A stretch of DNA of 22,485 nt, filler included, from an uncultured virus (IMG/VR IMGVR_UViG_2897328257_000004) (Duplodnaviria; Heunggongvirae; Uroviricota; Caudoviricetes). It is 3 parts of one record of this genome, joined end to end, with 100 filler letters (N's around TTAATTAATTAA, not from the genome) between each part and the next. Parts side by side here need not be neighbours in the genome. Positions count along the whole stretch, not along the records: positions 4,216 to 17,862 come from IMGVR_UViG_2897328257_000004; 2 more parts are not named here. One strand, 5' to 3'. The position numbers and the translations under genes were made by a program. This document shows positions 1 through 17,862 of this stretch, one piece after another (position 1 is the first letter of the stretch; each line of letters starts with the position of its first letter). Below the pieces are notes generated by a model, which had not been told where the DNA came from, ran no database searches, and saw nothing but the letters and a program-made list of their open reading frames with translations.

Positions 1-1131
1 TCAAATGACCAGTTTTTTCCATTCCTTACCGCGTGCGTCGTTGTAAATATCGGTCATTTTTTGATTCGAATGGCCCAGCAAAATTTTGGTATCAATTCCC
101 TGTTCTCTGAACAATCGTTCTGATAAAGATCTCTGCTCATGGAAAGAGGGTGGGGTGCCATTAGCACGCCAGTTGTAATCCACTGAATCCCGGGCTTTTT
201 TAAATGCAACGGTTAACGTTGCTGGCTTAACCATCCCGCCGCGCTTAGCTGTCCCTTTAGCATGATGGTGGTGCAATAGCCACGGACTAAGAACGCAATC
301 GCGACAGGATGACACCACATCATCCAGGGTGAGATTTAATTTATCGCAACGCAGAGCCAGAGGGATGGCAATCCGGGTTCCTGTTTTTTGCTGTTCGACA
401 TGAAGATAACCATCCCTGATATCCGAAAATTTCATTTTGCAAATATCTGAAAGGCGCTGGCCTGTCATCAGTGCCAGCAGCATACCACGCTGTAAAAAGT
501 AACCATCCTTTTCCGCTGCATTATAAATCATCATCCACTCATCAAAGGTCAGTCGTTGCCGTGATATCCGTACCTGTGGTTTTTTTGCCGATTCTGCAGG
601 GTTAAAGCCTGGCGGGACATCGCCCGTTTGCTGGGCCTCCCGGAAAACATCAATCAGTACTTTCCTGAAAATTTGTCCCATTCTGTTATGTCCTTTTGCC
701 TTGTAATCTTCCAGCACCGATACCACATCTTTTACGGTTATGGCATCTAAAGGTCTGGTACCAAAACGTTCATCAAATACCCTGAGAGGGGATGCTTTCT
801 GTTTCAGTGTGTTGAGTTTGATCTCTCCGTTTTCATATCTTTCCTGTTGAATTTTTCGGTAACTATTCAGAAAAACAGAAACGGTTGATGAACCACCGGT
901 ATCACGAATAATTTTCTCCTGCAGAGTGAGCATTTGTTCCATTTGTTGCCTGGCAAGACGGCTGTTCGCTTCTGCTGCAATAGCTTCTGCCTGTTTCTGG
1001 TCAATACTGCCGAGCCCGTGATTTTTTCCTGTTATGGGATGCCTGTAACGCCAGTAAACTTTGTTATTTCTTTTGTCAAAATACGGAGATAATCCCGGAA
1101 CTTCAGTTTTATATTTTCGTGGGCGCGCCAT
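1..1131 (-). CDS. int: Lambda-family tyrosine integrase
   Basis: 376 aa. N-terminal arm-binding region (VYWRYRHPITGK). Catalytic motifs GQRLSD (R), QQKTG (K), FHEQR (HxxR), LLGH (H) and DIYND (Y). Overlaps the 3' end of xis. Confidence 0.97.
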   Translation of the reverse strand: MARPRKYKTEVPGLSPYFDKRNNKVYWRYRHPITGKNHGLGSIDQKQAEAIAAEANSRLARQQMEQMLTLQEKIIRDTGGSSTVSVFLNSYRKIQQERYENGEIKLNTLKQKASPLRVFDERFGTRPLDAITVKDVVSVLEDYKAKGHNRMGQIFRKVLIDVFREAQQTGDVPPGFNPAESAKKPQVRISRQRLTFDEWMMIYNAAEKDGYFLQRGMLLALMTGQRLSDICKMKFSDIRDGYLHVEQQKTGTRIAIPLALRCDKLNLTLDDVVSSCRDCVLSPWLLHHHHAKGTAKRGGMVKPATLTVAFKKARDSVDYNWRANGTPPSFHEQRSLSERLFREQGIDTKILLGHSNQKMTDIYNDARGKEWKKLVI

Positions 1132-1357
1132 CTTCCAGTATCCTCTTCAAAGCAGGGTGATCTGTGGCGATCACTTCCGGCTTGTTTACCATTCCGACAA
1201 AGCGAGCTCGAGGATCCACTCGCCAGTGTCTTCCAACTTTTTTGGGGAGAGGAAATATCATTCCGGCTTTAGCGTATTTACTTAACGTGCCCGGAGTAGG
1301 GACCGGTTCACTGAATTCCTCTTTTGCCCACTCAGTGAGCAGAATAAGTCTTGCCAT
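1109..1357 (-). CDS. xis: Excisionase
   Basis: 82-aa basic protein immediately upstream of and overlapping int. Xis-type pattern LTEWA...TLSKYAKAGMIFPLPKKVGRHWRV. Confidence 0.9.
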   Translation of the reverse strand: MARLILLTEWAKEEFSEPVPTPGTLSKYAKAGMIFPLPKKVGRHWRVDPRARFVGMVNKPEVIATDHPALKRILEDGAPTKI

Positions 1358-1421
1358 GAGCGTTGTTCGCTAATCATGGCCGCCGCCACTATAGCTTGCG
1401 GACGACGACCGGGGTTGAACA

Positions 1422-3893
1422 TTAAAAATCAGCCTGACTCGGGATCAGTTTTTGCCAGATTGCTGAAACTTGTTTTGCCTGGTGACGGGCATCGTCCAGC
1501 GCATTGTGGGGTACGCCTTCGAATGGAATAGCCATTCTGACATCAAAGCCAATGGCATTACCCAGTTCAACGATTGTGCGTACATCGCGATCGTTGTAGT
1601 AAAGCCACGGGCAGGGGATCCCCTGCCGTTCATATGAACGGCGTAAAATTACGTTGTCGAAGTTGGCTCCATTTCCCCATACCTGGACAAAACGCCCGCC
1701 GGAGTTTTTTTCGATAAATTCTATGAATAGCCGGAGAGCAACATCTAACGAGATTTCATCGGTAAAAATAGCGGATTGTGCTTCGCGTGATCGTTTCGCC
1801 CACCACTTTATTGTTTTACGGTCGATGATTCCGCCGGAGGTTTCCAGATCGATAGCTTTACTGAATTCAGGCCCCATCTCTCCGGTTGCCGGATCAAAAA
1901 ATTTACCGCCAATAGAGTTGATTGGCGCATCAGGATTTGTTCCCATCGTTTCAAGGTCGACCGACAGGTGAATCCACACTCTGCTGGTGGATGTGATAAT
2001 GTGATGACCATTCACCGCAATCAAGGGCTCTGCTGCCTCGCCAGTTTCACTATCGCTGGTGTGATGCTGATCGTTACCAGCATTCTCATTGTTCGGATGT
2101 TCAGCGCCTTCCATTTCCTCCGAATCATCTTCCTGAACTTCAGCCTGATTTTTTTCATCGAATGTTTCCTGGTATGTTGCGTCGCCCATTACCGCGCCAC
2201 AGTCAGGACAGTTGCCGTCGCCGGTCTGACCGCAAGCGGTGCAGACTTTTTCCGGTTCTTGTTGCACTTCTGGTTCAGGCAGTTTCGTTTCTGGCTCGTT
2301 TTGTAACGCATTTGGACTGTTTTGTTCCGCTTTCTGGTCGTTTTGTTCCGATTCGGGCTGGTTCTGGTTCACAGAATCGCGGGTTTCAATCCCCTTAACC
2401 CATTTCGGATCATTCGGGTCGCTAATCCCTTCAACAAATTCACCACGTGATGCAGCAAGCAATTTATCGGTGTCAGGCTGGCTGATATTGGCTGCCTGCA
2501 TAATTTTGTTTACTTCGTCAGCGGTAACTTTTACCGGCTCTGGTTGTTCTGAATCTTCTGCGGTATCTGTATTTTGCTGTAAGCCCGTATATGTGCCATT
2601 TTTTCGGGCAAAATATTCTTCTTTTGAGATTTCGGTACCACCGGCAGCCAGCGCCTTGTCCAGGCCAGAAAGTTTGTTTGCCCTGCCGTATTTTTCCCCG
2701 TCCTTATCGGTAAAGACGAAATAAAACGGTCCTTCACGCTCTACAGATGGTTCAGCTTCCACCAGGATTTCATTTTTTTGAGAATTGGATTCCGCCGTCT
2801 CCACTGGATCAGTTTGTGCTGCTGACGACAGGATAGCATCAGCAGAGCTCTGGTCTGTTTCTTCATGTTCAAACACGCCCTTTGTCGTCAGGTATTCGCT
2901 GATGTATTTGTTCAGTGCAACGGGATCTTTGTGAATGTCGATCGGGCGCTCACGAACAAGGCCGAAAATAGTCTGACGGTCATAGCGAAGCGCATCAGGC
3001 TGTTTGCGCATTGATGCTGAGATACGCTTCCAGTCTTCGCGATCCTTGTCGATAACCTCATTTTTAGCCCAGCGATGGATGGTACCGTCAATGTTTCCTG
3101 TATCCACATCCCCGGGCCAGAGGGCGCAGGCCAGTTCTTTATCCAGTGTTTTCCATGTCTGCCTGTATTCGCGACGAATGGCTGTAGTGACAGGGTTGAT
3201 TTTTGCTGCTGAGTTTTCGGTGAGGTGCTGGTTAACTCTGGTGCGTGCGAGATCAACAACAGACGTATATTTTCCGGTTTTCTTGCGTTCACCTTCGCGA
3301 CGTTTTTTCCAGATGCGCATCTCTGCCTGAATTTCTGGCCATTTGGCACCAGGCTTACATTTATGCTTAACCCACCCGATGGCATGCAGTTTAATCTCCG
3401 GATACATGGCGTTAACTTCTGGCATTTTCATCAACGCTTCAACGATATGTCCGTCGAAGGTTGCCATGTCTTCCTGCAACAATTCCTGTGCGCTAATCAC
3501 CATATCAACGGTGATGTTTTCACATGTGTCGAACTTAACCATGACAGCGTTCTGTACTTCAGGGGACAGCTTGTCAAAAGTGACGTTCATCGGATCTGAT
3601 TCAGTCTCAACCGGGACAAAGGAAGCAGACGCCTCATCCCAGCGGTTTTCCAGCATATATTCAGCATCCCAGGAGTCGAGGGCTGGGCGGGGTGTACCGG
3701 GTTTATCCTCACAGACAAGAAATTTATAAGCGCAGTCCTGAGCAGCCGGATAATGTTCAAGGAATTGCCAGTGAAATTTTGCGCGGGCGCGACGTTCATC
3801 ACCGGCTTCAATGGCTGTGGCCACAGCAACAGCGCCCTCGTTTTTTATTGCCTGTTCGTCAGGAATGGCGGCGCAAATAAATATTTTACTCAT
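1422..3893 (-). CDS. Prophage exonuclease: RecE(ExoVIII)-like N-terminal region fused to a C-terminal DEDDh 3'-5' exonuclease domain
   Basis: 823 aa. C-terminal motifs DLETMG, WGNGANFD and HNALDDA (DEDDh). CTAC-x7-CPDC motif and acidic linker. The N-terminal two thirds resemble the Rac RecE-type non-catalytic region (from recall). Confidence 0.85.
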   Translation of the reverse strand: MSKIFICAAIPDEQAIKNEGAVAVATAIEAGDERRARAKFHWQFLEHYPAAQDCAYKFLVCEDKPGTPRPALDSWDAEYMLENRWDEASASFVPVETESDPMNVTFDKLSPEVQNAVMVKFDTCENITVDMVISAQELLQEDMATFDGHIVEALMKMPEVNAMYPEIKLHAIGWVKHKCKPGAKWPEIQAEMRIWKKRREGERKKTGKYTSVVDLARTRVNQHLTENSAAKINPVTTAIRREYRQTWKTLDKELACALWPGDVDTGNIDGTIHRWAKNEVIDKDREDWKRISASMRKQPDALRYDRQTIFGLVRERPIDIHKDPVALNKYISEYLTTKGVFEHEETDQSSADAILSSAAQTDPVETAESNSQKNEILVEAEPSVEREGPFYFVFTDKDGEKYGRANKLSGLDKALAAGGTEISKEEYFARKNGTYTGLQQNTDTAEDSEQPEPVKVTADEVNKIMQAANISQPDTDKLLAASRGEFVEGISDPNDPKWVKGIETRDSVNQNQPESEQNDQKAEQNSPNALQNEPETKLPEPEVQQEPEKVCTACGQTGDGNCPDCGAVMGDATYQETFDEKNQAEVQEDDSEEMEGAEHPNNENAGNDQHHTSDSETGEAAEPLIAVNGHHIITSTSRVWIHLSVDLETMGTNPDAPINSIGGKFFDPATGEMGPEFSKAIDLETSGGIIDRKTIKWWAKRSREAQSAIFTDEISLDVALRLFIEFIEKNSGGRFVQVWGNGANFDNVILRRSYERQGIPCPWLYYNDRDVRTIVELGNAIGFDVRMAIPFEGVPHNALDDARHQAKQVSAIWQKLIPSQADF

Positions 3894-3988
3894 TGTGTTT
3901 AAACCTCATTACAGATTTCAGGGTGAACGAATCCCTGCCATTGCTGGCATTTTTAATCCGTTGGTATGGCGTTAATATGGCTGGCGGG

Positions 3989-4114
3989 TTATCCAGCCGG
4001 TATTTCGTTATTCAGGTACAGCGATACTTTGTTTAACGGGAGACATTCACCGGAAATTTTTTGCTCGTCTCTTGCCTGATGGCAGGATTCTTTACTGGCA
4101 TAAATTCCGGTAAT
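3989..4114 (-). CDS. YdfD/DUF1482-family small protein, 5' end lost in the gap
   Basis: Hand translation ITGIYASKESCHQARDEQKISGECLPLNKVSLYLNNEIPAG* matches the C..A..EQKI.G.C.P..KV....N.EIPAG pattern of YdfD-like proteins. Expected position upstream of the exonuclease. Not in the ORF track. Confidence 0.8.
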   Translation of the reverse strand: MTGIYASKESCHQARDEQKISGECLPLNKVSLYLNNEIPAG

Positions 4115-4115
4115 C

Positions 4116-4215
4116 NNNNNNNNNNNNNNNNNNNNNNNNNNNNNNNNNNNNNNNNNNNNTTAATTAATTAANNNNNNNNNNNNNNNNNNNNNNNNNNNNN
4201 NNNNNNNNNNNNNNN
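4116..4215. other. Artificial contig linker (44 N + TTAATTAATTAA + 44 N)
   Basis: Stops-in-all-frames 12-mer at 4160-4171 flanked by N runs. Identical design to the second gap. Confidence 0.99.
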
Positions 4216-4275
4216 CTGACGAACCTGTATTTCAAGATTAAAGAAGACCGTCGTAAGGCGGCACGGGGAGAGTAG
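4216..4275 (+). CDS. S: Class II holin (phage 21 S-like pinholin), C-terminal fragment
   Basis: Hand translation LTNLYFKIKEDRRKAARGE* is the characteristic C-terminus of S21-family holins. Lies upstream of a SAR endolysin. Confidence 0.92.
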   Translation: MTNLYFKIKEDRRKAARGE

Positions 4276-4947
4276 GTGATGAACCATGAAGAAATGAATC
4301 AGCGCTTCAGTCGTCTGGAAAATGAAATTGCTGAACTGAATAAAAAACTGTCGGCGCTGATGCCTTCTGAAGATGCAAACAAACGCCGCGATGAGCAGTT
4401 TGCGGCGTTTTACGATGATTGCATCAAAATTGCTCGCAGGATCTTTGCGAATATTTTGCAGGAAAAGTTTTTACCGACCGCATTGTCAGAAAAGTACTCC
4501 ATTACGGTTAAAAGTGCCGGAGAGGAAGGCAATAAACGTTATTTTATTGCGTCTGCACCGGATAAAGACCAGGAATGGGGGGGTAATCGGCCATCTTTTA
4601 TTGTGACAAGCGATGACTGGAATATCACGATCAGTGAAGATGGAAAAGTAACACCAGCATCGCACCAGCACAGTGAGGCGCTCATTGAATTTGCCATTGA
4701 TTACATGAAGAACAATAAAAAGCAGGGGCTGATGCAGCGCATTGGTCGCTGCATGGGATATCTGCAGCTGGCGGCAGAGATTGAAGCACTTGCCTGTGGT
4801 GCTGACAAGGATGTAGTTGTGCGGGAGGCTCTTCTTCGTGAGTTTGACAACCCGCCCTTTAAAAAAGTGCCGGCTTACTGGTTTCATCCCGGACTGACTT
4901 ATCTGAAAGGGCGGTTTGGGGAGAGGTTATCTGAACTTAAGCGATAG
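4276..4947 (+). CDS. Hypothetical protein between holin and endolysin, with N-terminal coiled coil
   Basis: 223-aa ORF starting immediately after the holin stop (GTG 4276 or ATG 4279, GGAG upstream). Heptad-like FSRLENEIAELNKKLSAL. No recognisable catalytic motif. Confidence 0.75.
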   Translation: MMNHEEMNQRFSRLENEIAELNKKLSALMPSEDANKRRDEQFAAFYDDCIKIARRIFANILQEKFLPTALSEKYSITVKSAGEEGNKRYFIASAPDKDQEWGGNRPSFIVTSDDWNITISEDGKVTPASHQHSEALIEFAIDYMKNNKKQGLMQRIGRCMGYLQLAAEIEALACGADKDVVVREALLREFDNPPFKKVPAYWFHPGLTYLKGRFGERLSELKR

Positions 4948-5247
4948 TTTATTGAAGAGCCGTTTTTTTTGCAGACAGGCAAAGTTTTTATCCCATGAAC
5001 AACCCGGGTGACTGAGTTCGTCATTAAACCATTTGTTAATGTTGTGCTTCAGATGCTGAAGCATCAATGGTGTTAATGTGGTGATAATGATATCCAGAGT
5101 TTCTGTTGAAAGCATGCCGTAAGGCTCTGAGAGAATGGCCTGAGTGGCCTCGCTGTTATCCGGGATAAGCGCTTTTAATTCTGATTTAACATTTTCGTTC
5201 ATTATCTGCAAAAACTCTTTGCGTAAATTGTTGTCATTATTATTCAT
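4927..5247 (-). CDS. Hypothetical protein, AT-rich, antisense to the late operon (moron-like)
   Basis: 106-aa ORF with an ATG start. Two perfect minus-strand TATAAT hexamers upstream (5295-5300, 5318-5323). 21-nt convergent overlap with 4276..4947. Confidence 0.65.
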   Translation of the reverse strand: MNNNDNNLRKEFLQIMNENVKSELKALIPDNSEATQAILSEPYGMLSTETLDIIITTLTPLMLQHLKHNINKWFNDELSHPGCSWDKNFACLQKKRLFNKLSLKFR

Positions 5248-5372
5248 TTATAAAATCTCATTTGTTGTTACCGGGTGTGTCCTGGTGCCTGTTGATTATA
5301 TTCATCGTGAGTACCGGATTATATATCTGACATATCCAGGAATAAGAGAGCTATAAATCCTGATAAATATCC

Positions 5373-5906
5373 ATGAACGCAAAAATCAAATACGGCCTGT
5401 CAGCTGCCGTTCTGGCGCTGATTGCCGCAGGGGCTTCTGCGCCTGAAATCCTCGACCAGTTTCTGGATGAAAAGGAAGGCAACCACACCACGGCATACCG
5501 TGATGGTGCGGGTATCTGGACCATCTGCCGAGGTGCCATCATGGTGGATGGTAAGCCTGTGATTCCTGGCATGAAGCTGTCGAAGGAAAAATGCGACCGG
5601 GTTAACGCCATTGAGCGTGATAAGGCGCTGGCATGGGTGGAGAAAAACATCAAAGTGCCACTGACTGAACCCCAGAAAGCGGGGATCGCGTCATTCTGCC
5701 CGTATAACATTGGCCCCGGTAAGTGTTTCCCGTCGACGTTTTATAAACGAATTAATGCAGGCGATCGCCGGGGTGCATGCGAGGCGATTCGCTGGTGGAT
5801 TAAAGACGGTGGCAGAGACTGCCGTATCCGCTCAAATAACTGTTATGGTCAGGTATCCCGTCGTGACCAGGAGAGCGCGCTGGCGTGCTGGGGTATCGAC
5901 AGATAA
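5373..5906 (+). CDS. R: SAR endolysin (GH24 lysozyme, R21-like)
   Basis: Gly/Ala-rich N-terminal SAR segment GLSAAVLALIAAGASA. Catalytic triad E35-D44-T50 with T4-lysozyme spacing. Confidence 0.96.
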   Translation: MNAKIKYGLSAAVLALIAAGASAPEILDQFLDEKEGNHTTAYRDGAGIWTICRGAIMVDGKPVIPGMKLSKEKCDRVNAIERDKALAWVEKNIKVPLTEPQKAGIASFCPYNIGPGKCFPSTFYKRINAGDRRGACEAIRWWIKDGGRDCRIRSNNCYGQVSRRDQESALACWGIDR

Positions 5907-6014
5907 GCCGAATATTTTGCTGAAAAATGACGTTGGCCAACGCGGACGGATAACACGAAATCCTGCGAACTGGCAAAATGTAAGTGAATAACGTCAGGAA
6001 CATTATTTCACGCA

Positions 6015-6040
6015 GAGGCACCGTAATGGTGCCTTTGTCA
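6015..6040 (+). terminator. Terminator-like hairpin after the endolysin gene
   Basis: GAGGCACC-GTAAT-GGTGCCTT stem-loop followed by an imperfect T tract (TGTCATTTC). Confidence 0.5.
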
Positions 6041-6045
6041 TTTCT

Positions 6046-6171
6046 GCGCTTCGCACAAGCGTAAATAAACCAAAGAACCTTTCAGGATGAGCCCTGGTGG
6101 ATAACCGGCAGTGGTCTGGTTAACCCTCTTTGGGCTGGTTATTCCTGTGCGCAGGGTTCATCACTAAAAGG
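6046..6171 (+). promoter_or_regulatory. Structured 5' leader, copy 1 (upstream of the antirepressor-N gene)
   Basis: Shares AGAACCTTTCAGGATGA (6074-6090) and GGTTCATCACTAAAAGG (6155-6171) exactly with 7441-7457 and 7519-7535. The two blocks are mutually complementary and include the SD. Confidence 0.75.
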
Positions 6172-6180
6172 AAATAACCG

Positions 6181-6753
6181 ATGAATATGATGACCGTGCC
6201 GTTTCACGGCGATTCTCTTTATGTGGTTAACCATAACGGCGAACCATACGTTCCCATGAAACCTGTCGTTGAGGGAATGGGTATGACCTGGCAGTCTCAA
6301 CACCGCAAATTGATGGAGAGATTTAAGACCTGCATCATCGAAATGATGATTCAGCTCCCCGGTGATACTCAGCGTCGTCTGGTTATCTGTCTTGCTTTAC
6401 GTAAACTTGCAGGTTGGCTGCAAACCATCAACCCAAATAAAGTTAAACCTGAAATCCGCGACAGAGTCATTCAGTATCAGGAAGAGTGCGACGATGTTCT
6501 CTATGAATACTGGACGAAGGGTTTTGTCGTTAATCCTCGTCAAATGAGCGTGATGGAAGAACTCAATCAGGCTTGCGCTGACATGCAACGGGATAAAAAC
6601 ATTGTCAGTGTGTTTGCTACCGGGCTGAATGAGTGGAAACAGGTTAAAGCTGCGCATGTATCAAAAATCCGCACATTGATAAACGAAGCGAATCTGCTGA
6701 TTGATTTTGTCCTGGCTGATACAGGCAAAGGGAAAATAACAAAGGCGGATTGA
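6181..6753 (+). CDS. Phage antirepressor protein (P22 Ant N-terminal domain)
   Basis: 190 aa. VPFHGDSLYVV..NGEPYVPMKPVVEGMG..W.SQ..KL, CLALRKLAGWLQTINPNKVKPEIR and YQEECDDVLYEYWTKG are P22_AR_N hallmarks. SD AAGGA. Confidence 0.92.
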   Translation: MNMMTVPFHGDSLYVVNHNGEPYVPMKPVVEGMGMTWQSQHRKLMERFKTCIIEMMIQLPGDTQRRLVICLALRKLAGWLQTINPNKVKPEIRDRVIQYQEECDDVLYEYWTKGFVVNPRQMSVMEELNQACADMQRDKNIVSVFATGLNEWKQVKAAHVSKIRTLINEANLLIDFVLADTGKGKITKAD

Positions 6754-6767
6754 TGGAGAGGTGGCTA

Positions 6768-6902
6768 ATGATATCGGATAAAATCATAACGCTGACAAAG
6801 ACCATTTGTGTGATTGTCGGCGTTTCATTTTCGCTAATGATGGTTGCTCTTTTTCTTTCCATAGCCTGGATGGCGTTGAGTTCGGCAGGGCTGGTGGGGT
6901 GA
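6768..6902 (+). CDS. Small putative membrane protein (44 aa)
   Basis: [51 protein letters not shown]. An in-frame ATG at 6753 overlaps the upstream stop, and its TGA overlaps the Rz GTG (GTGA). Not in the ORF track. Confidence 0.65.
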
Positions 6903-7342
6903 GCATAAACCGAATTATTTCCGCGTTTACCGTTATTCTGCTGGTGGTCTGTGGTGTGCTTAGTCTGGGGCTGAATCATTACCGTGATAACGCCATCGCC
7001 TACAAAGAGCAGCGCGATAAAGCCACATCCATCATCGATGATATGCAGAAGCGGCAACGTGATGTAGCAGAACTTGACGCCAGATACACAAAGGAGCTTG
7101 CTGATGCTAATGCGACTATCGAAAGTCTCCGTGCTGATGTTTCTGCTGGTCGTAAGCGCCTGCAAGTCGCCGCCACCTGTGCAAAGTCAACGACCGGAGC
7201 CAGCAGCATGGGCGATGGAGAAAGCCCAGGACTTACAGCAGATGCTGAACTCAATTATTACCGTCTCAGAAGTGGAATCGACAAGATAACCGCGCAGGTT
7301 AACTACCTGCAGGAATACATCAGGACGCAATGCCTGAAATAA
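6899..7342 (+). CDS. Rz: i-spanin Rz
   Basis: N-terminal TM segment followed by [25 protein letters not shown] and the [10 protein letters not shown] end. Start taken as GTG 6899 rather than 6806. Confidence 0.93.
7104..7289 (+). CDS. Rz1: o-spanin lipoprotein Rz1, nested in Rz (+1 frame)
   Basis: AAGGAG SD at 7091-7096. Signal peptide with lipobox VSAC and Pro-rich mature part (SPPP...PEPAAWAM). Confidence 0.9.
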
Positions 7343-7372
7343 TTTTTTTGCAAATCACAAAGTCCATTTAAT

Positions 7373-7398
7373 GAGCCCCGCGATGCGGGGCTTTTTTA
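7373..7398 (+). terminator. Rho-independent terminator after Rz
   Basis: AGCCCCGC-GAT-GCGGGGCT followed by TTTTT. Confidence 0.85.
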
Positions 7399-7412
7399 TG
7401 TACGCAGTAAAC

Positions 7413-7535
7413 GCGCTTCACACGCGCGACTTATGAACACAGAACCTTTCAGGATGACCCTTGAGGATGCCGGTTTGGTGATCGGTGCCTTTCTGTGGGC
7501 CGGAATCCTGTGTGACAAGGTTCATCACTAAAAGG
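7413..7535 (+). promoter_or_regulatory. Structured 5' leader, copy 2 (upstream of the Rha-family gene)
   Basis: Paralogue of 6046-6171 with two identical 17-mers, the same 28-nt offset to an upstream GCGCTTCRCAC box, and compensatory changes. Confidence 0.75.
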
Positions 7536-7544
7536 TGTGCACTG

Positions 7545-8087
7545 ATGAATTATCCAACTATCGTTAACGGCATCGATTTTCGAGATCTGATTTTTGTGGC
7601 AAACAACGATCCGGTTACAGATTCTTTTATGGTGGCAAAAGCATTTGGAAAGCTGCCGAAGAACGTAGTTCGTGACATTGAACGAACCATAGAAGCTTGC
7701 CCTCCTGAGTTTGATACAAAGCTCAACTTTGAGCTTTGCTATAAAAACAATGAGTTACAGAATGGTAAGCCGCAAAAATTCTACCGTCTCCGCAAGGATG
7801 GGTTGATGCTTTTGGTTATGTCCTACACCAAAAAAGAAGCAATGCGTATCAAAATTGCTTACATCAACGCATTTAACTGGATGTACGCCATGCTTCAGGT
7901 TGGTCATCGTCAATTTGAAGAAGAGAGAAATGCCGTAATGCTGGAGTACATGAAAGAGAAGGATGTTGCCAGCATGTCAGGTCGCCTGCTAAATCGCTGG
8001 GGCAAAATTAAGAAGCCACAGCTGCTGGCTAGAATTGAACGCCTTGAACAGCACGGGCAAACCGTAATCCCCGGACTCATCAATTAA
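7545..8087 (+). CDS. rha: Rha-family phage regulatory protein
   Basis: VTDSFMVAKAFGK..KNVVRDIE, NFELCY, YRLRKDGLMLLVMSYT and KIAYINAFN are Rha motifs. Start at ATG 7545 after AAGGTG (180 aa). Confidence 0.92.
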   Translation: MNYPTIVNGIDFRDLIFVANNDPVTDSFMVAKAFGKLPKNVVRDIERTIEACPPEFDTKLNFELCYKNNELQNGKPQKFYRLRKDGLMLLVMSYTKKEAMRIKIAYINAFNWMYAMLQVGHRQFEEERNAVMLEYMKEKDVASMSGRLLNRWGKIKKPQLLARIERLEQHGQTVIPGLIN

Positions 8088-8089
8088 CG

Positions 8090-8505
8090 GCAGTACCGCG
8101 AAACAACCCAAGCCAGTAAGTGGGGAAATAACACTGGCAGCCACTGAAAGATGAACCTCCAGCCTTATGGCAAAAAAGATTCTTTGTGGTGGCGGACTGA
8201 TGGAAAGACATCGGTTATTGCAGAGGCCATTCAATGAGTGGTCTCGACAATGGCTTATACCCTACACGGGATAACTTAATTGATATCCTTTTTAACGGAT
8301 AAAGGCATTTCAGCCTGACATAGCCATGCGCCGTATCGTCGCCGTATTCCTGCATTAACAGAGACCGCAGCCCGACAGGGAGACTCCTCTGCGAGAGTGT
8401 GCGGGGATAATCAAAAACGATACACACCGGGGTTTACCGCGTTAACGGAGCGCGGCGTTGTCCCCTCATGGTCGCTGGTCCGGTGCGATGGTGGAAGAAA
8501 CTGGA
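8090..8505 (+). ncRNA. Candidate structured non-coding RNA region between rha and cos
   Basis: No convincing ORF. Many nested helices with G-U pairs that work on the + strand (see findings). No family assignment. Confidence 0.4.
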
Positions 8506-8538
8506 TTTTGTTGCAACTGATAACCATTATCATTTTAC

Positions 8539-8580
8539 GGGTCCTTTCCGGCGATCCGGGCCGTTACGGGGCGGCGACCT
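8539..8580 (+). promoter_or_regulatory. cos: cosQ and cosN (lambda-type cohesive end site)
   Basis: cosQ GGGTCCT at 8539-8545. Lambda 12-nt cohesive end GGGCGGCGACCT at 8569-8580, followed by lambda-like CGCGGGTTTTCGCTATTTATGAAAATTTT. Confidence 0.97.
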
Positions 8581-8619
8581 CGCGGGTTTTCGCTATTTAT
8601 GAAAATTTTTAGGGAAAAA

Positions 8620-8732
8620 TCAGATCCGTTCTTCTTCTTTTTAACTGATTGATTATCAATAGAATTTTAAAAATATAAAAGGATCTGACAAAGGCTGTTT
8701 TTGTCCGAAAACGCCATTTTCAGATCCTTTCT
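8620..8732 (+). promoter_or_regulatory. cosB: three terminase R sites and an IHF site
   Basis: TCAGATCCGTTCT (8620-8632), inverted AAAGGATCTGA (8678-8688) and TCAGATCCTTTCT (8720-8732) in the R3/R2/R1 arrangement. IHF consensus WATCAANNNNTTR on the minus strand at 8642-8654. Confidence 0.88.
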
Positions 8733-8749
8733 GGTTTCCGGAGGAGTGT

Positions 8750-9298
8750 ATGAACGTCAATAAGAAAAAACTGGCCGATATTTTTGGCGTTGATGTCAGG
8801 ACCATCACCGCCTGGCAGAGTCAGGGGTTACCACTGGTTTCTGGTGGAGGGAAAGGGACTGAATCAGTTTTTGATACAACTGCTGCCATTCAGTGGTATG
8901 CGCAGCGCGAAGCTGATATTGAAAACGAAAAACTCCGTAAAGAGGTCGAAGATTTGAGGGCTGCCAGTGAATCTGACCTTCAGCCCGGCACCATTGATTA
9001 CGAACGTTACCGACTGACGAAGGCACAGGCCGATGCACAGGAGCTGAAAAATGCTCGTGAGGAAGGCCTTGTCCTCGAGACGGAGTTATTTACCTACATC
9101 TTTCAGAGAGTGGCACAGAATATATCTGGGATCCTTGTCCGTGTCCCTCAGACACTGCAGCGTAAATACCCTGAGATATCACCCGCACATCTTGATGCTG
9201 TGAAAACTGAAATCGCGAAAGCATCCGATGTGGCTTCTGAAGCCGGTGAGAATGTGCGCAGGTGGATTGATGATTTCAGACGAACTGAGGGCGGCTAA
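8750..9298 (+). CDS. nu1: Terminase small subunit
   Basis: w[59 protein letters not shown]; first gene after cos. Confidence 0.97.
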
Positions 9299-11198
9299 TT
9301 CTGCAGGAGCGATAGCAACCGGCCTTCTTGCGCTAAAAATTCCTGTCCCCCTGACGACAGTTCAGTGGGCAGATCGACACTATTACCTTCCGAAAGAGTC
9401 ATCTTACACCCCGGGGCGGTGGGAAACACTGCCGTTTCAGGTAGCCATCATGAACAGCATGGGGAATGACCGGATCCGCACGGTTAATCTGATTAAATCT
9501 GCCCGTGTTGGTTATACAAAGATGTTGCTGGGAGTGGAGGCTTATTTTATTGAGCATAAATCACGCAACAGCCTTCTTTTCCAGCCTACGGATTCTGCTG
9601 CTGAAGATTTTATGAAATCTCATGTGGAACCCACGATCAGGGATGTGCCGGTTTTACTCGATCTTGCACCGTGGTTTGGGCGTAAACATCGTGATAATAC
9701 CCTCACGCTGAAACGCTTTTCATCGGGTGTGGGCTTCTGGTGCCTGGGCGGTGCGGCAGCAAAAAACTACCGTGAAAAATCCGTGGACGTGGTCTGCTAT
9801 GACGAGCTTTCCTCGTTCGAGCCGGATGTTGAAAAAGAGGGCTCGCCAACCCTGCTGGGGGATAAGCGTATTGAGGGCTCTGTATGGCCAAAATCCATTC
9901 GCGGCTCGACGCCTAAAATCAAAGGTTCCTGCCAGATCGAAAAAGCGGCCAACGAGTCGGCGCATTTCATGCGTTTTTATGTGCCCTGCCCGCACTGTGG
10001 GGAGGAGCAGTATCTGAAATTTGGCGATGAGTCCACGCCTTTTGGCCTTAAATGGGAGAAGGACAGACCCGAAAGTGTTTTCTACCTCTGTGAACATCAT
10101 GGCTGTGTGATCCATCAGTCTGAACTGGACCAGAGCAACGGGCGGTGGATCTGTGAAAACACAGGCATGTGGACCCGTGACGGTCTGACGTTTTTCAGCG
10201 CTGCGGGTAATGAAATTCCGCCGCCGCGCTCCATCACGTTCCACATCTGGACGGCGTACAGTCCGTTCACCACCTGGGTACAGATAGTCTATGACTGGCT
10301 GGATGCACTGAAAGATCCCAACGGCCTGAAAACCTTTGTGAACACCACGCTGGGCGAGACCTGGGAAGAGGCCGTGGGCGAAAAACTCGATCACCAGGTA
10401 CTGATGGATAAGGTTGTGCGTTACACGGCGGCGGTGCCTGCCCGGGTGCTTTATCTGACGGCGGGCATTGACTCGCAGCGAAACCGTTTTGAGATGTATG
10501 TCTGGGGATGGGCTCCGGGAGAGGAAGCCTTTCTGGTGGATAAAATCATCATTATGGGGCGTCCTGATGAGGAAGAGACTTTGTTACGTGTGGATGCGGC
10601 GATCAACAAAAAATACCGCCATGCAGACGGAACCGAAATGACCATTTCCCGGGTCTGCTGGGACACCGGGGGGATCGATGGCGAAATCGTTTATCAGAGA
10701 TCAAAAAAACACGGTGTTTTCCGGGGGTTGCCGGTAAAAGGCGCATCTGTCTATGGCAAGCCGGTGATCACCATGCCAAAAACCCGCAATCAGCGGGGCG
10801 TGTATCTGTGTGAAGTGGGGACGGACACCGCAAAAGAAATTCTCTATGCCCGTATGAAAGCCGATCCCACGCCTGCGGATGAGGCCACGTCGTATGCCAT
10901 CCGTTTTCCTGATGATCCAGAGGTTTTTTCGCAGACAGAGGCGCAGCAACTGGTAGCGGAAGAGCTGGTGGAGAAGTGGGAAAAAGGAAAGATGCGTCTG
11001 CTGTGGGATAACAAAAAGCGGCGTAACGAAGCGCTGGACTGCCTGGTGTATGCCTACGCGGCATTACGTGTGTCCGTGCAACGCTGGCAGCTTGATCTGG
11101 CTGTACTGGCAAAATCCCGGGAAGAAGAGACGACCCGGCCAACCCTGAAAGAACTGGCAGCGAAGCTGTCCGGAGGAGTGAATGGTTACAGTCGCTGA
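9270..11198 (+). CDS. A: Terminase large subunit (gpA family)
   Basis: Walker [10 protein letters not shown], Walker [33 protein letters not shown] 9270 preferred to 9228. Confidence 0.97.
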
Positions 11199-11388
11199 AC
11201 TGCAGGCGCTGCGTCAGGCGCGCCTTGATTTATTAACCGGTAAACGGGTGGTGTCTGTCCAGAAAGATGGTCGCAGAATTGAATATACGGCGGCTTCTCT
11301 GGATGAGCTTAACCGTGCGATCAATGATGCGGAGTCGGTACTGGGGACAACCCGCCGTCGCCGTTGTCCGCTGGGAGTGAGGTTATGA
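11182..11388 (+). CDS. W: Head completion protein gpW
   Basis: 68 aa. DLLTGKRVVSVQKDGRRIEY motif; between terminase and portal. Confidence 0.95.
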   Translation: MVTVAELQALRQARLDLLTGKRVVSVQKDGRRIEYTAASLDELNRAINDAESVLGTTRRRRCPLGVRL

Positions 11389-12977
11389 AACGAACGCCTG
11401 TCCTGATTGATGTGAACGGCGTTCCGCTTCGGGAGAGCCTCAGCTACCACGGGGGCGGTGCAGGATTTGGCGGGCAAATGGCGGAGTGGTTGCCACCCTC
11501 GCAGAGTGCCGATGCGGCCCTGCTGCCCGCGTTGCGTCTGGGGAATGCCCGTGCAGATGATCTGGTGCGCAATAACGGGATAGCGGCTAATGCGGTGGCC
11601 CTGCATAAGGATCATATTGTCGGGCATATGTTTCTGATCAGCTACCGTCCGAACTGGCGCTGGCTGGGGATGCGGGAGACTGCGGCAAAAAGTTTTGTCG
11701 ATGAGGTGGAGGCGGCCTGGTCGGAATACGCAGAAGGGATGTTTGGCGAGATTGACGTGGAAGGGAAACGCACGTTTACGGAATTTATCCGTGAAGGTGT
11801 GGGCGTTCATGCCTTTAACGGCGAAATCTTTGTGCAGCCGGTCTGGGATACGGAGAGCACGCAGCTGTTTCGTACGCGTTTTAAAGCCGTGAGTCCGAAA
11901 CGGGTGGACACGCCAGGGCACGGTATGGGGAACCGCTTTCTGCGGGCCGGTGTGGAGGTCGATCGATATGGTCGTGCCGTTGCGTACCATATCTGTGAGG
12001 ATGATTTTCCGTTCTCCGGGAGTGGACGATGGGAACGGATCCCGCGTGAACTTCCCACCGGGCGTCCGGCCATGCTGCATATTTTCGAGCCGGTGGAGGA
12101 CGGGCAGACCCGTGGAGCCAATCAGTTTTACAGCGTCATGGAACGGCTGAAGATGCTCGATTCCCTGCAGGCAACACAGCTTCAGTCGGCCATTGTCAAG
12201 GCCATGTATGCAGCGACGATTGAAAGTGAACTGGATACCGAAAAGGCCTTTGAATATATCGCCGGTGCGCCGCAGGGGCAGAAGGATAATCCGCTTATTA
12301 ATATTCTGGAGAAGTTCTCCAGCTGGTATGACACGAATCACGTGACGCTGGGCGGTGTCAAAATTCCGCACCTTTTCCCTGGTGATGATCTGAAACTACA
12401 GACAGCGCAGGATTCAGACAATGGATTTTCGGCGCTTGAACAGGCGCTGCTGCGGTATATCGCCGCCGGTCTTGGCGTTTCCTACGAACAGTTGTCCCGT
12501 GATTACTCGAAGGTCAGTTATTCAAGTGCCCGCGCCTCCGCCAATGAGTCGTGGCGCTATTTTATGGGGCGGCGAAAATTTATTGCGGCCCGGCTGGCCA
12601 CGCAGATGTTTTCCTGCTGGCTGGAAGAGGCACTTCTTCGGGGGATTATTCGTTCGCCACGGGCACGTTTTGATTTTTATCAGGCGCGATCAGCCTGGTC
12701 ACGGGCAGAGTGGATTGGTGCCGGAAGAATGGCCATTGACGGGCTCAAGGAAGTCCAGGAATCAGTGATGCGCATTGAGGCCGGACTGAGCACGTATGAG
12801 AAAGAGCTGGCGCTGATGGGCGAGGATTATCAGGACATTTTCCGCCAGCAGGTCAGGGAATCTGCAGAGCGGGAAAAAGCCGGACTCTCACGCCCGGTGT
12901 GGATAGCGCAGGCGTATCAGCAGCAGATAGCGGAGAGTCGCAGGCCGGAAGAGGAGACAACACCACGTGAGACGTAA
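11385..12977 (+). CDS. B: Portal protein (lambda gpB family)
   Basis: ARADDLVRNNG, GQTRG, GLGVSYEQLSRDY...YSSARAS, IDGLKEV. ATGA overlap with the W stop. Confidence 0.97.
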   Translation: MKRTPVLIDVNGVPLRESLSYHGGGAGFGGQMAEWLPPSQSADAALLPALRLGNARADDLVRNNGIAANAVALHKDHIVGHMFLISYRPNWRWLGMRETAAKSFVDEVEAAWSEYAEGMFGEIDVEGKRTFTEFIREGVGVHAFNGEIFVQPVWDTESTQLFRTRFKAVSPKRVDTPGHGMGNRFLRAGVEVDRYGRAVAYHICEDDFPFSGSGRWERIPRELPTGRPAMLHIFEPVEDGQTRGANQFYSVMERLKMLDSLQATQLQSAIVKAMYAATIESELDTEKAFEYIAGAPQGQKDNPLINILEKFSSWYDTNHVTLGGVKIPHLFPGDDLKLQTAQDSDNGFSALEQALLRYIAAGLGVSYEQLSRDYSKVSYSSARASANESWRYFMGRRKFIAARLATQMFSCWLEEALLRGIIRSPRARFDFYQARSAWSRAEWIGAGRMAIDGLKEVQESVMRIEAGLSTYEKELALMGEDYQDIFRQQVRESAEREKAGLSRPVWIAQAYQQQIAESRRPEEETTPRET

Positions 12978-14472
12978 TCTTTCACACATTATTGCCGCAG
13001 CATTCAATGAACCGCTGCTTCTGGAGCCCGCCTATGCGCGGGTTTTCTTTTGCGCGCTCGGGCGCGAGATGGGGGCAGCAAGTCTTTCGGTACCACAACA
13101 ACAGGTACAGCTTGATGCGCCCGGAATGCTGGCTGAAACGGACGAGTACATGGCCGGAGGTAAACGACCGGCCCGTGTTTACCGGGTGGTGAACGGTATT
13201 GCTGTACTGCCGGTGACCGGCACGCTGGTGCACCGGCTGGGCGGTATGCGGCCATTTTCCGGAATGACAGGCTATGACGGCATTGTCGCCTGTCTTCAGC
13301 AGGCAATGGCGGATAGCCAGGTGCGGGGCGTACTGCTGGACATTGACAGTCCGGGCGGGCAGGCCGCCGGCGCGTTTGACTGCGCTGACATGATTTACCG
13401 CCTTCGTCAGCAGAAGCCGGTCTGGGCACTGTGCAATGACACGGCCTGTTCTGCAGCCATGCTGCTGGCGTCGGCCTGCTCCCGACGGCTGGTTACCCAG
13501 ACATCCCGTATCGGCTCCATTGGCGTGATGATGAGCCATGTCAGCTATGCCGGTCATCTGGCGCAGGCCGGTGTGGATATCACGCTGATTTATGCCGGGG
13601 CGCACAAGGTGGATGGCAATCAGTTTGAAGCGTTGCCGGCAGAGGTTCGCCAGGACATGCAGCAGCGGATTGATGCGGCGCGCCGGATGTTTGCCGAAAA
13701 AGTGGCGATGTATACCGGGTTGTCTGTGGATGCGGTCACGGGAACAGAGGCCGCCGTTTTTGAAGGTCAGTCCGGCATTGAGGCCGGGCTGGCGGATGAA
13801 TTAATCAATGCGTCGGATGCCATCAGTGTGATGGCCACGGCGCTGAACAGTAATGTCAGAGGAGGCAGTATGCCGCAATTAACTGCAACGGAAGCCGCCG
13901 TGCAGGAGAACCAGCGAGTGATGGGGATCCTGACATGCCAGGAAGCGAAAGGACGTGAACAGCTTGCCACGATGCTGGCAGGACAACAGGGCATGAGCAT
14001 TGAACAGGCCCGGGCGATTCTGGCCGCGGCAGCACCACAGCAGCCGGTGGCATCCGCGCAGAGTGAAGCCGATCGCATTATGGCGTGTGAAGAAGCGAAC
14101 GGTCGTGAACAACTGGCGGCAACGCTGGCGGCGATGCCGGAGATGACGGTGGAAAAAGCCCGCCCGATCCTGGCTGCTTCACCGCAAGCGGATGCAGGCC
14201 CCTCACTTCGTGATCAGATTATGGCTCTGAGTGAGGCGAAAGGGGCTGAGGCGCTGGCTGAAAAACTGGCGGCGTTTCCCGGAATGACTGTGGAGTCTGC
14301 CCGAGACATGCTGGCCTCATCGTCGGATAAAGCAGAACCGGTCTCTGCATCCACAACCGCCCTGTTTGAACGGTTCATGGCGAACCATTCACCGGCAGCG
14401 GTGCAGGGTGGCGTGTCACAGGCGTCAGCAGACGGTGATGCGGACGTGAAAATGCTCATGGCCATGCCATGA
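12967..14472 (+). CDS. C: S49 capsid maturation protease gpC
   Basis: LLDIDSPGG, ACSAA and IGSIGV S49 motifs; follows the portal gene. Confidence 0.95.
   Translation: MRRNLSHIIAAAFNEPLLLEPAYARVFFCALGREMGAASLSVPQQQVQLDAPGMLAETDEYMAGGKRPARVYRVVNGIAVLPVTGTLVHRLGGMRPFSGMTGYDGIVACLQQAMADSQVRGVLLDIDSPGGQAAGAFDCADMIYRLRQQKPVWALCNDTACSAAMLLASACSRRLVTQTSRIGSIGVMMSHVSYAGHLAQAGVDITLIYAGAHKVDGNQFEALPAEVRQDMQQRIDAARRMFAEKVAMYTGLSVDAVTGTEAAVFEGQSGIEAGLADELINASDAISVMATALNSNVRGGSMPQLTATEAAVQENQRVMGILTCQEAKGREQLATMLAGQQGMSIEQARAILAAAAPQQPVASAQSEADRIMACEEANGREQLAATLAAMPEMTVEKARPILAASPQADAGPSLRDQIMALSEAKGAEALAEKLAAFPGMTVESARDMLASSSDKAEPVSASTTALFERFMANHSPAAVQGGVSQASADGDADVKMLMAMP
13870..14472 (+). CDS. nu3: Scaffolding protein, in-frame internal start in C (Nu3-like)
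   Basis: GGAGG SD at 13861-13865 and in-frame ATG 13870 (MPQLTATEAA). Ala/Glu-rich helical repeats; same arrangement as lambda C/Nu3. Confidence 0.75.
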   Translation: MPQLTATEAAVQENQRVMGILTCQEAKGREQLATMLAGQQGMSIEQARAILAAAAPQQPVASAQSEADRIMACEEANGREQLAATLAAMPEMTVEKARPILAASPQADAGPSLRDQIMALSEAKGAEALAEKLAAFPGMTVESARDMLASSSDKAEPVSASTTALFERFMANHSPAAVQGGVSQASADGDADVKMLMAMP

Positions 14473-14508
14473 AGTCAGTGCTGACCATCAATACGAGGTT
14501 TTAACAAT

Positions 14509-14856
14509 ATGGTGACGAAAACCATCACTGAACAGCGTGCGGAAGTACGTATTTTTGCCGGTAATGATCCGGCTCACACTGCCACAGGCAGCAGCGGGAT
14601 TTCTTCTGCAACACCGGCTCTGACGCCCCTGATGCTGGATGAAGCCAGCGGGAAACTGGTGGTCTGGGACGGACAGAAAGCCGGTAGTGCGGTTGGCATA
14701 CTGGTACTGCCGCTTGAAGGCACAGAGACGGTGCTGACCTATTACAAGTCGGGGACCTTTGCGACGGAGGCAATCCACTGGCCTGAACGTGTGGATGAAC
14801 ACAAAAAGGCCAACGCCTTTGTCGGCACAGCCCTGAGTCACGCGGCGCTGCCGTAA
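14509..14856 (+). CDS. D: Head decoration protein (gpD/Shp-like)
   Basis: GNDPAHTATG, TPLMLD...KLVVWDG, YYKSGTF; upstream of the major capsid gene. Confidence 0.95.
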   Translation: MVTKTITEQRAEVRIFAGNDPAHTATGSSGISSATPALTPLMLDEASGKLVVWDGQKAGSAVGILVLPLEGTETVLTYYKSGTFATEAIHWPERVDEHKKANAFVGTALSHAALP

Positions 14857-14913
14857 CACGTTATCAGGCCGCCGCGTTGGCCTGACTGATTTCTGAATGA
14901 AAGGAACTGATTT

Positions 14914-15942: not shown

Positions 15943-15950
15943 TCCGGGAG

Positions 15951-15979
15951 CGGGGGCGAAATGCCCCCGTGTCTTTTTT
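15951..15979 (+). terminator. Terminator-like hairpin after the major capsid gene
   Basis: CGGGGGC-GAAAT-GCCCCCG followed by TGTCTTTTTT. Confidence 0.75.
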
Positions 15980-15993
15980 CACAGGGGGCTGAG

Positions 15994-16377
15994 ATGGCAA
16001 CAAAAGAAGAAAATCTGAATCGTCTTCGTCAACTGGCTGGTCTGCTGGGACGCGAGGCGGATATGTCGGGGAGTGCTGCGGATATTGCTCAGCGTGTGTC
16101 TGAGTGGGAAGAGGAGCTTGCTGCTTCCCGGGAGGACATTATGCACTCTGATGAGAGCGGGTCTGACCAAAATTACACAGACGATGGTGAGCCGTTGAAC
16201 AACACGGATGCTCCGGATGATGTTAAAGCCGTCCGTGTGCGCAAGTGCCTGCATGTGATGGGGTATTGCCCGGAGACAGGCCGTCCTGTTGAGCTTACGT
16301 TCCGGGGGATGCGTGTTCTGGTGCCATCATCACTGGCAATGGCCATGATACAGCACGGAACGGCTGAGTATGCGTGA
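15994..16377 (+). CDS. FI: DNA packaging protein gpFI
   Basis: TKEENLNRLRQLA..LGREADMSGS..DIAQRVSEWEEEL; synteny. ATG 15994 preferred because 15961 lies inside the hairpin. Confidence 0.88.
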   Translation: MATKEENLNRLRQLAGLLGREADMSGSAADIAQRVSEWEEELAASREDIMHSDESGSDQNYTDDGEPLNNTDAPDDVKAVRVRKCLHVMGYCPETGRPVELTFRGMRVLVPSSLAMAMIQHGTAEYA

Positions 16378-16723: not shown

Positions 16724-16738
16724 ACGCAGGGTGAAATT

Positions 16739-17706: not shown

Positions 17707-17713
17707 GGACGAT

Positions 17714-17862
17714 ATGGCAACACCAAATCCCCTGGAGCCGGTAAAAGGTGCCGGTACCACACTGTGGGTTTACACCGGCAAGGGTGATGCTTATGCAAAC
17801 CCGTTGTCAGACGATGAGTGGACGCGCCTGGCAAAAATAAAAGATCTGACCCCCGGCGAGAT
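17714..17862 (+). CDS. V: Major tail tube protein gpV, truncated by the gap
   Basis: [34 protein letters not shown] is the gpV N-terminus. Confidence 0.95.

Follow-up and report, generated by a model that had tools for sequence, protein, structure and literature searches.

Simple leader hairpins sequester the ribosome-binding site (RBS) of homing-endonuclease and late genes in phage T4, and they are bypassed by a late promoter located inside the hairpin. The N leader of phage lambda contains an RNase III-sensitive hairpin that occludes the N RBS and is not known to include pseudoknots. For the pseudoknotted operators in the mRNAs of rpsO (S15), the alpha operon (S4), and T4 gene 32, the autoregulatory protein that binds them is known. 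Here, we describe a structured mRNA leader that occurs twice, upstream of an ant-like and a rha-like gene, in a stretch of 22,485 nucleotides (nt), filler included, from the uncultured virus IMGVR_UViG_2897328257_000004 (Caudoviricetes). This whole stretch (the window) is a lambdoid prophage. It consists of three joined parts with 100 N between parts; positions 4,216–17,862 are from IMGVR_UViG_2897328257_000004, and adjoining parts need not be neighbors in the genome. Each leader copy belongs to an uncatalogued family of cis-acting mRNA leaders of approximately 135 nt, carried by temperate phages of the Enterobacterales, and it probably acts as a translational lock.

According to the relevant passages of PMC12197685, the antisense RNAs sar of P22 and c4 of P1/P7 hold antirepressor synthesis down by pairing at or near the RBS, and c4 is located on the same transcript as its target. 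The passages of PMC4426718 on Shiga toxin (Stx) phages name the ant gene behind R as d_ant and predict that the 20-nt RNA 24B_1 binds within its coding region. Expression of Rha has been reported to harm the host or the phage, in the part of PMC4936722 that deals with it.

Architecture of the two leaders

Copy A (6032–6187) and copy B (7399–7551) are located upstream of ant and rha, respectively, and can be aligned from a small upstream hairpin through to the start codon. The initial annotation of the window had proposed a duplicated leader with two identical 17-mers. These are AGAACCTTTCAGGATGA, at 6074–6090 and 7441–7457, and GGTTCATCACTAAAAGG, at 6155–6171 and 7519–7535. With up to two mismatches allowed, each has exactly two matches in the window, compared with 0.00 and 0.01 expected from 100 shuffles, and no third copy or mimic of either was found in these 22 kb. 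Both copies fold alone as a long hairpin, in which CCTTT is paired with AAAGG and GATGA with TCATC. The 17-mers therefore pair with each other and bury the Shine-Dalgarno (SD) sequence as had been claimed, with only the 5′ half of the SD contained in the helix, where it forms the last five 3′ bases. The compensatory change between the copies (CCCTG/CAGGG versus CCTTG/CAAGG) and the inner stem, both noted earlier, are also present. The fold of copy A has an energy of −49 kcal/mol (z −3.07). A covariance model gave scores of 157 and 135 bits for the two copies on the plus strand and 17 and 14 bits on the minus strand. Four of 24 listed RNA sequencing runs were compared with the window. Three yielded contigs, whose ends at 6033 and 7406 coincide with the edges of the repeated leader and are probably assembly breaks, and the raw-read run contributed no reads.

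The leader is laid out as an intrinsic terminator, a hairpin (P0), a linker of 7–9 nt, and a long arm-to-arm helix (P1-P2-P2ext). Two long-range pairings, PK1 and PK2, connect these elements. All of the following features are on the plus strand. In copy A, the sequence and a hairpin scan show a terminator-like hairpin, GGCACC-GTAA-TGGTGCC (stem-loop 6017–6033), with the tail TTTGTCATTTCT, occupying 6017–6045 in total. P0 (6046–6062; GCGCTT/AAGCGT) is assigned by covariation, and its loop CGCAC (6052–6056) is the 5′ strand of PK2. The linker just 5′ of P1 contains the 5′ strand of PK1, CCAAAGA (6070–6076), which is the exact complement of 6127–6133 and covaries with it in the family. The 5′ strand of P1, including the anti-SD CCTTT, is located at 6078–6096, and that of P2 and P2ext, GGATAACCGG, at 6099–6108; both were assigned by folding and covariation, and the latter also by RNAalifold. 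A variable apical segment (6109–6126), defined from family lengths, separates them from the 3′ strand of PK1, TCTTTGG (6127–6133; complementarity and family covariation). It is 2–17 nt long across the family and is dispensable. The 3′ strand of P2ext and P2, CTGGTTATTCC (6135–6145; fold and covariation), is followed by the 3′ bulge GTGCG (6147–6151; complementarity and covariation), which is the 3′ strand of PK2 and the partner of the P0 loop. The 3′ strand of P1 (6152–6171; fold and covariation) ends with AAAGG and leads into the SD AAGGA at 6168–6172 and the ant ATG at 6181.

Copy B repeats this arrangement. Its intrinsic-terminator-like hairpin (7373–7393) and T run occupy 7373–7398, and P0 (7412–7428; CGCGC/GCGCG; fold and covariation) contains the loop bases TCACAC (7418–7423) as the 5′ strand of PK2. 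The strands of PK1 are CACAGAA (7438–7444) and TTCTGTG (7491–7497), both assigned by complementarity and family covariation. Folding and covariation place the 5′ strand of P1 with the anti-SD CCTTT at 7445–7463 and, together with RNAalifold, the 5′ strand of P2 and P2ext, GGATGCCGG, at 7465–7473. The 3′ strand of P2ext and P2, CCGGAATCCT (7500–7509; fold and covariation), adjoins the 3′ bulge GTGTGA (7510–7515; complementarity and covariation), which is the 3′ strand of PK2. The 3′ strand of P1 (7516–7535; fold and covariation) again ends with AAAGG, with the SD AAGGTG at 7532–7537 and the rha ATG at 7545.

The terminator-like hairpin that had been described before each copy is strong for copy B, where both terminator scans detected it, and weaker for copy A, where one of the two scans detected the hairpin at 6017–6033. 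In the family, 50 of 68 members have such a hairpin no more than 70 nt before P0, and some of the misses are imperfect stems visible by eye.

Covariation of the nested helices

The 68 members are contained in an alignment (A3) that was fitted to the model and therefore favors the nested structure. In this alignment, 96.3% of the cells in the nested helices are standard pairs, compared with 33–55% when the partners are slid, and none of 500 shuffles reaches any of five measures. The initial annotation had named covariation among homologs as a check on its reading; two-sided changes were observed in 28 of the 30 nested pairs, and the P0 hairpin has such changes in all four of its pairs. An unfitted MAFFT alignment of 40 sequences gave 25 pairs with RNAalifold, eight of which have two-sided changes. 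The helices contain 87 G-U cells and 13 A-C cells. Because of this imbalance, and because the model scores of the plus strand are far above those of the minus strand, we assign the RNA to the plus strand.

The SD strand forms the 3′ end of the base of P1 in all 68 members, and the start codon is located 7–11 nt further on. The pairing of the SD is kept by compensatory variants, such as CCUUA/UAAGG and CCUUG/UGAGG. The arms of P1 are 19–21 nt long and contain one mismatch and one bulge. Among 53 members less than 85% identical, the positions conserved in at least 90% are almost only in the basal helix, the SD, and the ends of PK1, and almost no unpaired base is invariant.

Two long-range pairings

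PK1 and PK2 are two covarying long-range pairings that go beyond the helices of the initial annotation. With them, the leader is predicted to fold as a double pseudoknot, which is a new feature reported here. The diverged core recognized earlier between the 17-mers is present; it is not the plain top of a hairpin but part of this double pseudoknot, in which the loop of the upstream hairpin and the linker also take part. Neither pairing is included in the covariance models, and therefore the alignment was not fitted to either.

PK1 is formed by 7–9 nt located just 5′ of P1 and the 3′ internal loop near the apex. It is the best helix in this register in 64 of the 68 members, with a mean of 6.94 base pairs (bp), compared with 5.36 bp for permuted partners and 4.96 bp for shuffled linkers. 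Compensated variants include CGAGAG/CUCUCG, CCGUAGA/UCUACGG, and CCCACCGA/UCGGUGGG. When examined by columns, 83% of the cells are paired, compared with 29–63% for slid partners, and there are 63 two-sided cells, compared with 4–26. Nineteen members from a second bacterial family, which were not part of the discovery of PK1, were examined by a register-free test; the registers of the subtypes differ in their alignment (A4). PK1 is in register in 13 of these 19, including the variant UCACAAC/GUUGUGG, and has a mean of 6.16 bp, compared with 5.17 bp for shuffled sequences.

PK2 connects the P0 loop with the 3′ bulge of 5–6 nt between P2 and P1. A helix of at least 5 bp is present in 65 of the 68 members and is represented by 34 helix types; the mean is 6.40 bp, compared with 4.62 bp for permuted and 3.65 bp for shuffled sequences. 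Despite register slips, 82.6% of the cells are paired by columns, compared with 21–58% for slid partners, and the covariation score is 0.408, compared with at most 0.058.

The lengths of the strands are nearly constant. The 5′ strand of P1 has 19–21 nt in 65 of the 68 members, the strand comprising PK1, P2ext, and P2 has 19–21 nt in 64, and the two differ by no more than 2 nt in 62. Because these two lengths are uncorrelated (r −0.08) and each is nearly constant, their match indicates compatibility and is not a proof. PK1 adjoins the anti-SD strand at a distance of 0–1 nt in 64 members and is flanked by P1 and P2ext. Two side-by-side stacks are therefore possible: PK1, P2ext, and P2 could stack as one helix beside P1, and PK2 would fix P0 at the turn.

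Distribution and downstream genes

The two leaders are members of an RNA family and not a local duplication. Searches with blastn using copies A and B matched 317 and 305 phage records, respectively, from Escherichia, Stx, Salmonella, Klebsiella, and Shigella phages. A pattern scan of IMG/VR found at least 123 stretches, and together with the first loci and the window, there are at least 135 instances with at least 38 distinct cores of 89–94 nt. Two covariance models were used, R1 (40 sequences) and R2 (68 sequences). R1 matched 36 of 151 genomes in the nearest bacterial family (one genome per genus), seven of 151 across the order, with three further families represented, and none of 151 across the class. 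With R2, there were matches in 17 of 49 genomes from one of these further families and in one of 151 at the class level, which was the nearest genome. Among the genomes searched, the leader family is thus confined to the order Enterobacterales. A blastn search of 5,426 complete E. coli genomes located leader A in 867; the median number of places per genome is three, and the highest is 10.

Tandem leaders are frequent and are separated by about 0.3–1 kb, as in the window. Examples are 194–355 and 1161–1315 in locus L145, and 1501–1645 and 1813–1965 in locus L146. The tandem copies differ in their PK1 and PK2 sequences in the window and in both of these loci. One genome (G170) has 12 leader matches, some of which are repeated pairs approximately 920 nt apart. 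Decayed open reading frames (ORFs) of 9–14 amino acids (aa) are found downstream of some leaders.

In phage P22 (NC_002371), rha is preceded by a leader at 39494–39650 that scores 75 bits. This leader RNA contains the start annotated for rha (orf201, coding sequence 39575–40180). The model places the start at ATG 39644, and the alignment with a Rha homolog begins at residue 24 of the annotated protein. Therefore, the first 23 codons of the annotated P22 rha are probably untranslated.

The leader had been suggested to be a portable module, and the downstream genes agree with this. From 39 groups of downstream proteins, 23 representatives were drawn, which comprise nine Phage_pRha (one weak), eight KilA-N, two HNH_3, one P22_AR_N, one ANT, one TerB, and one without a match. 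A second set of 38 genome-locus instances, from which two decayed ORFs (11 and 13 aa) and one duplicate were omitted, gave 35 proteins: 14 Phage_pRha, seven KilA-N, four Bro-N, three P22_AR_N, two TerB, one AntA, one T5orf172, and three without a match. Taken together, 48 of the 58 downstream genes encode DNA-binding proteins of the non-homologous antirepressor types (Rha, KilA-N, P22_AR_N, Bro-N, AntA, or ANT).

Within the window, the claim that the leader precedes members of different protein families applies to the N-terminal domains, which are P22_AR_N in Ant and Phage_pRha in Rha (Pfam), and BLASTP found no significant similarity between the two proteins (E 0.24). It does not extend to the C-terminal domain, ORF11CD3, which is common to both proteins and below the Pfam cut-off in Ant (20.6 bits, compared with 25).

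The leader had also been considered not to be a named family. A search of the whole window against Rfam 15 gave no match at the gathering score, a search of 5900–7700 at E values up to 10 gave only weak, terminator-driven matches, and 20 divergent members searched at E values up to 0.1 gave none on the leader. The C4 and IsrK models of Rfam did not match the leader, nor did those of int-alpA, of the ROSE and FourU thermometers, or of riboswitches and ribozymes, and our literature search found no description of it.

Proposed function and alternatives

The structure, strand, position, and gene association of the leader are established by these results; repression of translation and any step of release are inferences. 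The terminator would stop RNA polymerase unless the enzyme has been rendered resistant to termination, and the leader would limit the translation of whatever is transcribed. PK1 and P2 may hold the anti-SD strand at its two ends while the SD is still untranscribed, and the SD would then be captured on its emergence. Together, the leader and the upstream terminator would hold the translation of the harmful, DNA-binding cargo (Ant, Rha, KilA-N, and others) low on read-through and late transcripts. The initial annotation had proposed a cis-regulatory RNA that keeps translation off until triggered. A structured leader on the plus strand agrees with the first half of this proposal; for the second half, no trigger for release was found, and the cost of opening the initiation region is ordinary. 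Autoregulation by the downstream protein is unlikely because these proteins span at least six unrelated N-terminal families.

Several points weigh against a lock of this design. In a nearest-neighbor calculation that ignores the pseudoknots, opening of the region from −18 to +6 costs 7.1 kcal/mol for ant and 9.2 kcal/mol for rha, which is within the range of 5.3–21.1 kcal/mol for the 20 window genes tested (these two and 18 other late genes) and is not exceptional. The helix contains no more of the SD than its 5′ half, and the spacer and the AUG are free. The fold of copy B (−45.7 kcal/mol) has a z of only −1.55 and is not unusual alone. For PK2, two of the five column measures do not exceed those of the shuffles (139 and 43 of 500), and the bundle geometry proposed above is derived from strand lengths and not from a three-dimensional model. 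The leader sequences are related, and many of them are from mobile DNA; their counts are thus not independent events. Finally, a plain hairpin would be sufficient for occlusion, and the elaborate knot hints at a further role. With an RNA thermometer in mind, the effect of temperature was calculated with the pseudoknots again ignored: between about 30 and 42 °C, the opening cost decreases only slightly, from 8.3 to 6.3 kcal/mol for ant and from 11.1 to 8.1 kcal/mol for rha, and the pairing probability of the SD window is almost constant, at 0.56 to 0.54 and 0.92 to 0.89, respectively.

An alternative is a trigger-responsive switch. The knot would serve as a sensor or as a site for docking, and a protein, a trans-acting RNA, or a small ligand would open or stabilize it, making the translation of antirepressors dependent on a signal. 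We regard such a switch as a doubtful possibility. The fold is more elaborate than occlusion requires, the PK sequences are highly variable (as in the 34 helix types of PK2), the codes differ between tandem copies of the same transcript, and antirepressor genes are gated by RNA elsewhere (P22 sar and P1 c4). However, the scarcity of invariant unpaired bases among the 53 divergent members is unlike a ligand-binding core, neither 17-mer has a further copy or mimic in the window, and no partner emerged. A still more tentative proposal is that the variable PK helices are specificity codes of an address-coded riboregulator of a new class, in which a cognate RNA or factor of the same or a co-resident phage would open one lock and not another. 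If this were true, the translation of antirepressors would be controlled copy by copy, with cross-talk between prophages, including Shiga toxin phages.

The long arms of P1, interrupted by a single mismatch and a single bulge, and the long untranslated gap that the element occupies in a polycistronic late operon could also indicate a processing or stability element. It would contain a site for RNase III (or another nuclease) or act as a 5′ stabilizer, cutting the cargo mRNA from the late transcript and setting its translation or half-life; the lambda N leader is a parallel. This is unlikely, since a duplex in which PK1 and PK2 had formed would be packed and kinked and would not be a free two-turn helix.

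The unpaired spacer and start codon and the ordinary opening cost might instead suggest a platform that promotes translation, with the knot presenting these single-stranded elements or recruiting the 30S subunit or protein S1; S1 can be bound by pseudoknots. This seems quite improbable: no member lacks pairing of the SD core, which compensatory changes preserve, and expression of cargo of this type has been reported to harm the host or the phage (for Rha, in the part of PMC4936722 cited above). It is highly improbable that the element lacks an RNA function and is instead a small ORF encoding a protein, or a conserved sequence at a recombination linker or boundary, moved with mobile cargo genes. 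Near-identical copies before different genes, sharp junctions at the start codon, and the ORFs of 54–63 aa annotated across the leader in several phage records might suggest this. Against it are the two-sided changes in the nested pairs and both pseudoknots, the excess of G-U over A-C cells, core lengths that break any frame, and an ATG frame in copy A that stops after five codons.

If the reading as a translational lock holds, P22 rha and the ant genes of Stx phages carry an unannotated double-pseudoknot RNA in front of genes that can tip the balance between lysis and lysogeny, and the leader would add a post-transcriptional layer of antirepressor control that is absent from present models of prophage induction. 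The leader is a well-supported candidate for a new Rfam family. With the leader, gene starts in phage records can be corrected and spurious small ORFs eliminated, and the leader also marks the edges of swappable cargo cassettes in late operons. It is also a tractable model for the capture of an RBS by a knotted RNA during transcription.

Gene context and other observations

The minus-strand genes of the window are, in order, an integrase, an excisionase, and a large exonuclease. The plus strand encodes an endolysin (5373–5906), Ant (6181–6753), Rz (6806–7342), Rha (7545–8087), and the terminase genes Nu1 and gpA. These genes were assigned with Pfam and PHROGs, by which the ant-like gene has P22_AR_N and a weak ORF11CD3 and the rha-like gene has Phage_pRha plus ORF11CD3. 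In positions 1–5400, the integrase, excisionase, and large exonuclease genes are located almost directly before the lysis genes, and the ORF at 4276–4947 matches the C-terminal part of its PHROG only. No immunity, replication, or Q-like genes were seen with Pfam and PHROGs between 3893 and 4276. Therefore, the content of the window suggests a deleted, cryptic prophage, which may be without its own late promoter. The region 5300–8800 is approximately 94% identical to Shigella phage POCJ13 and to Stx2a and O104:H4 phages.

The gene upstream of the leader was examined for 37 instances and encodes a spanin in 12, an endolysin in five, a Q-like protein in three, a tail protein in two, the C-terminus of Ant in one, and a protein whose function is not known in seven; seven were unmatched. 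Wherever a name could be given, it is a late gene. In loci L007, L153, L154, and L159, the leader is located approximately 90–390 nt after a Q-like antiterminator gene and before a TerB-like (TciA) gene. In these four loci, the leader is thus at the very start of the late operon and not behind the lysis genes. Positions 2248–2436 of L007 (Klebsiella phage 1 LV-2017), downstream of the TerB-like tciA that follows the leader, match STnc100 of Rfam (81 bits; gathering score 47).

Records of Salmonella phages annotate hypothetical proteins of 54–63 aa across the leader (1430–1594 in L005, 1430–1621 in L006 and L008, and 1463–1654 in L010). Because of the covariation of the RNA and the length changes that break the frame, these ORFs look like spurious gene calls. 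A small ORF in copy B (ATG 7455) was rejected for a similar reason: the ATG frame of copy A stops after five codons, and the cores of 89–94 nt shift the frame.

Other candidates were also set aside. An antisense RNA on the minus strand was rejected, because no promoter-like site was found for it, the minus-strand scores are weak, and G-U cells prevail over A-C cells. On that strand, 7373–7452 has a weak match to asX2, a small RNA of Xanthomonas (29 bits; gathering score 70), which is derived from the terminator hairpin and the complement of P0 and is not a real family match. A self-cleaving ribozyme or a riboswitch does not agree with the lack of an Rfam match and the few invariant unpaired bases. 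A bistable apex, in which the 5′ CCGG strand has a near or a far partner, was rejected as a general feature because the apical segment has only 2–3 nt in some members and the far pairing covaries. The repeated AGGATG was considered by eye, from the consensus sequence, as a set of CsrA sites, and divergent members do not keep the repeat. A site like that of IHF in the linker was a by-eye reading of the same kind and was also set aside. The small RNA 24B_1 was not retained as a partner of the leader because its predicted site, as given in the relevant passages of PMC4426718, is in the coding region of d_ant, outside the leader.

Comparison with known systems

As in the T4 hairpins, a cis helix of the leader pairs the SD of an optional, potentially harmful phage gene on read-through transcripts, and the SD bases are paired in the leader helix in both copies and in the 68 members. 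Some of the leaders, like the T4 hairpins, precede nuclease-type genes (HNH_3 and T5orf172). Unlike the T4 hairpins, the leader has two covarying pseudoknots. A scan for sigma-70-like promoters found none inside either copy. The lambda N leader resembles it in that a long leader duplex covers the ribosome-binding region in the mRNA of a lambdoid phage, although the two have no sequence or Rfam relationship.

In common with sar and c4, the leader combines an antirepressor gene with RNA pairing at the RBS. However, the partner of the SD is not an antisense RNA but the adjacent 5′ arm of the same leader, and unlike in c4, the P0 loop has its complement in the bulge separating P2 from P1 and not in the RBS. 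The rpsO, alpha, and gene 32 operators similarly have a pseudoknot in a leader, next to or around the initiation region. Unlike these operators, which each have a known binding protein, the leader is followed by at least six unrelated N-terminal families, and no candidate binder emerged. By analogy, the functionally nearest relatives of the leader described here appear to be the lambda N leader and the T4 hairpins that sequester the RBS of endonuclease genes, and sar, c4, and the protein-bound pseudoknot operators also appear to be close.

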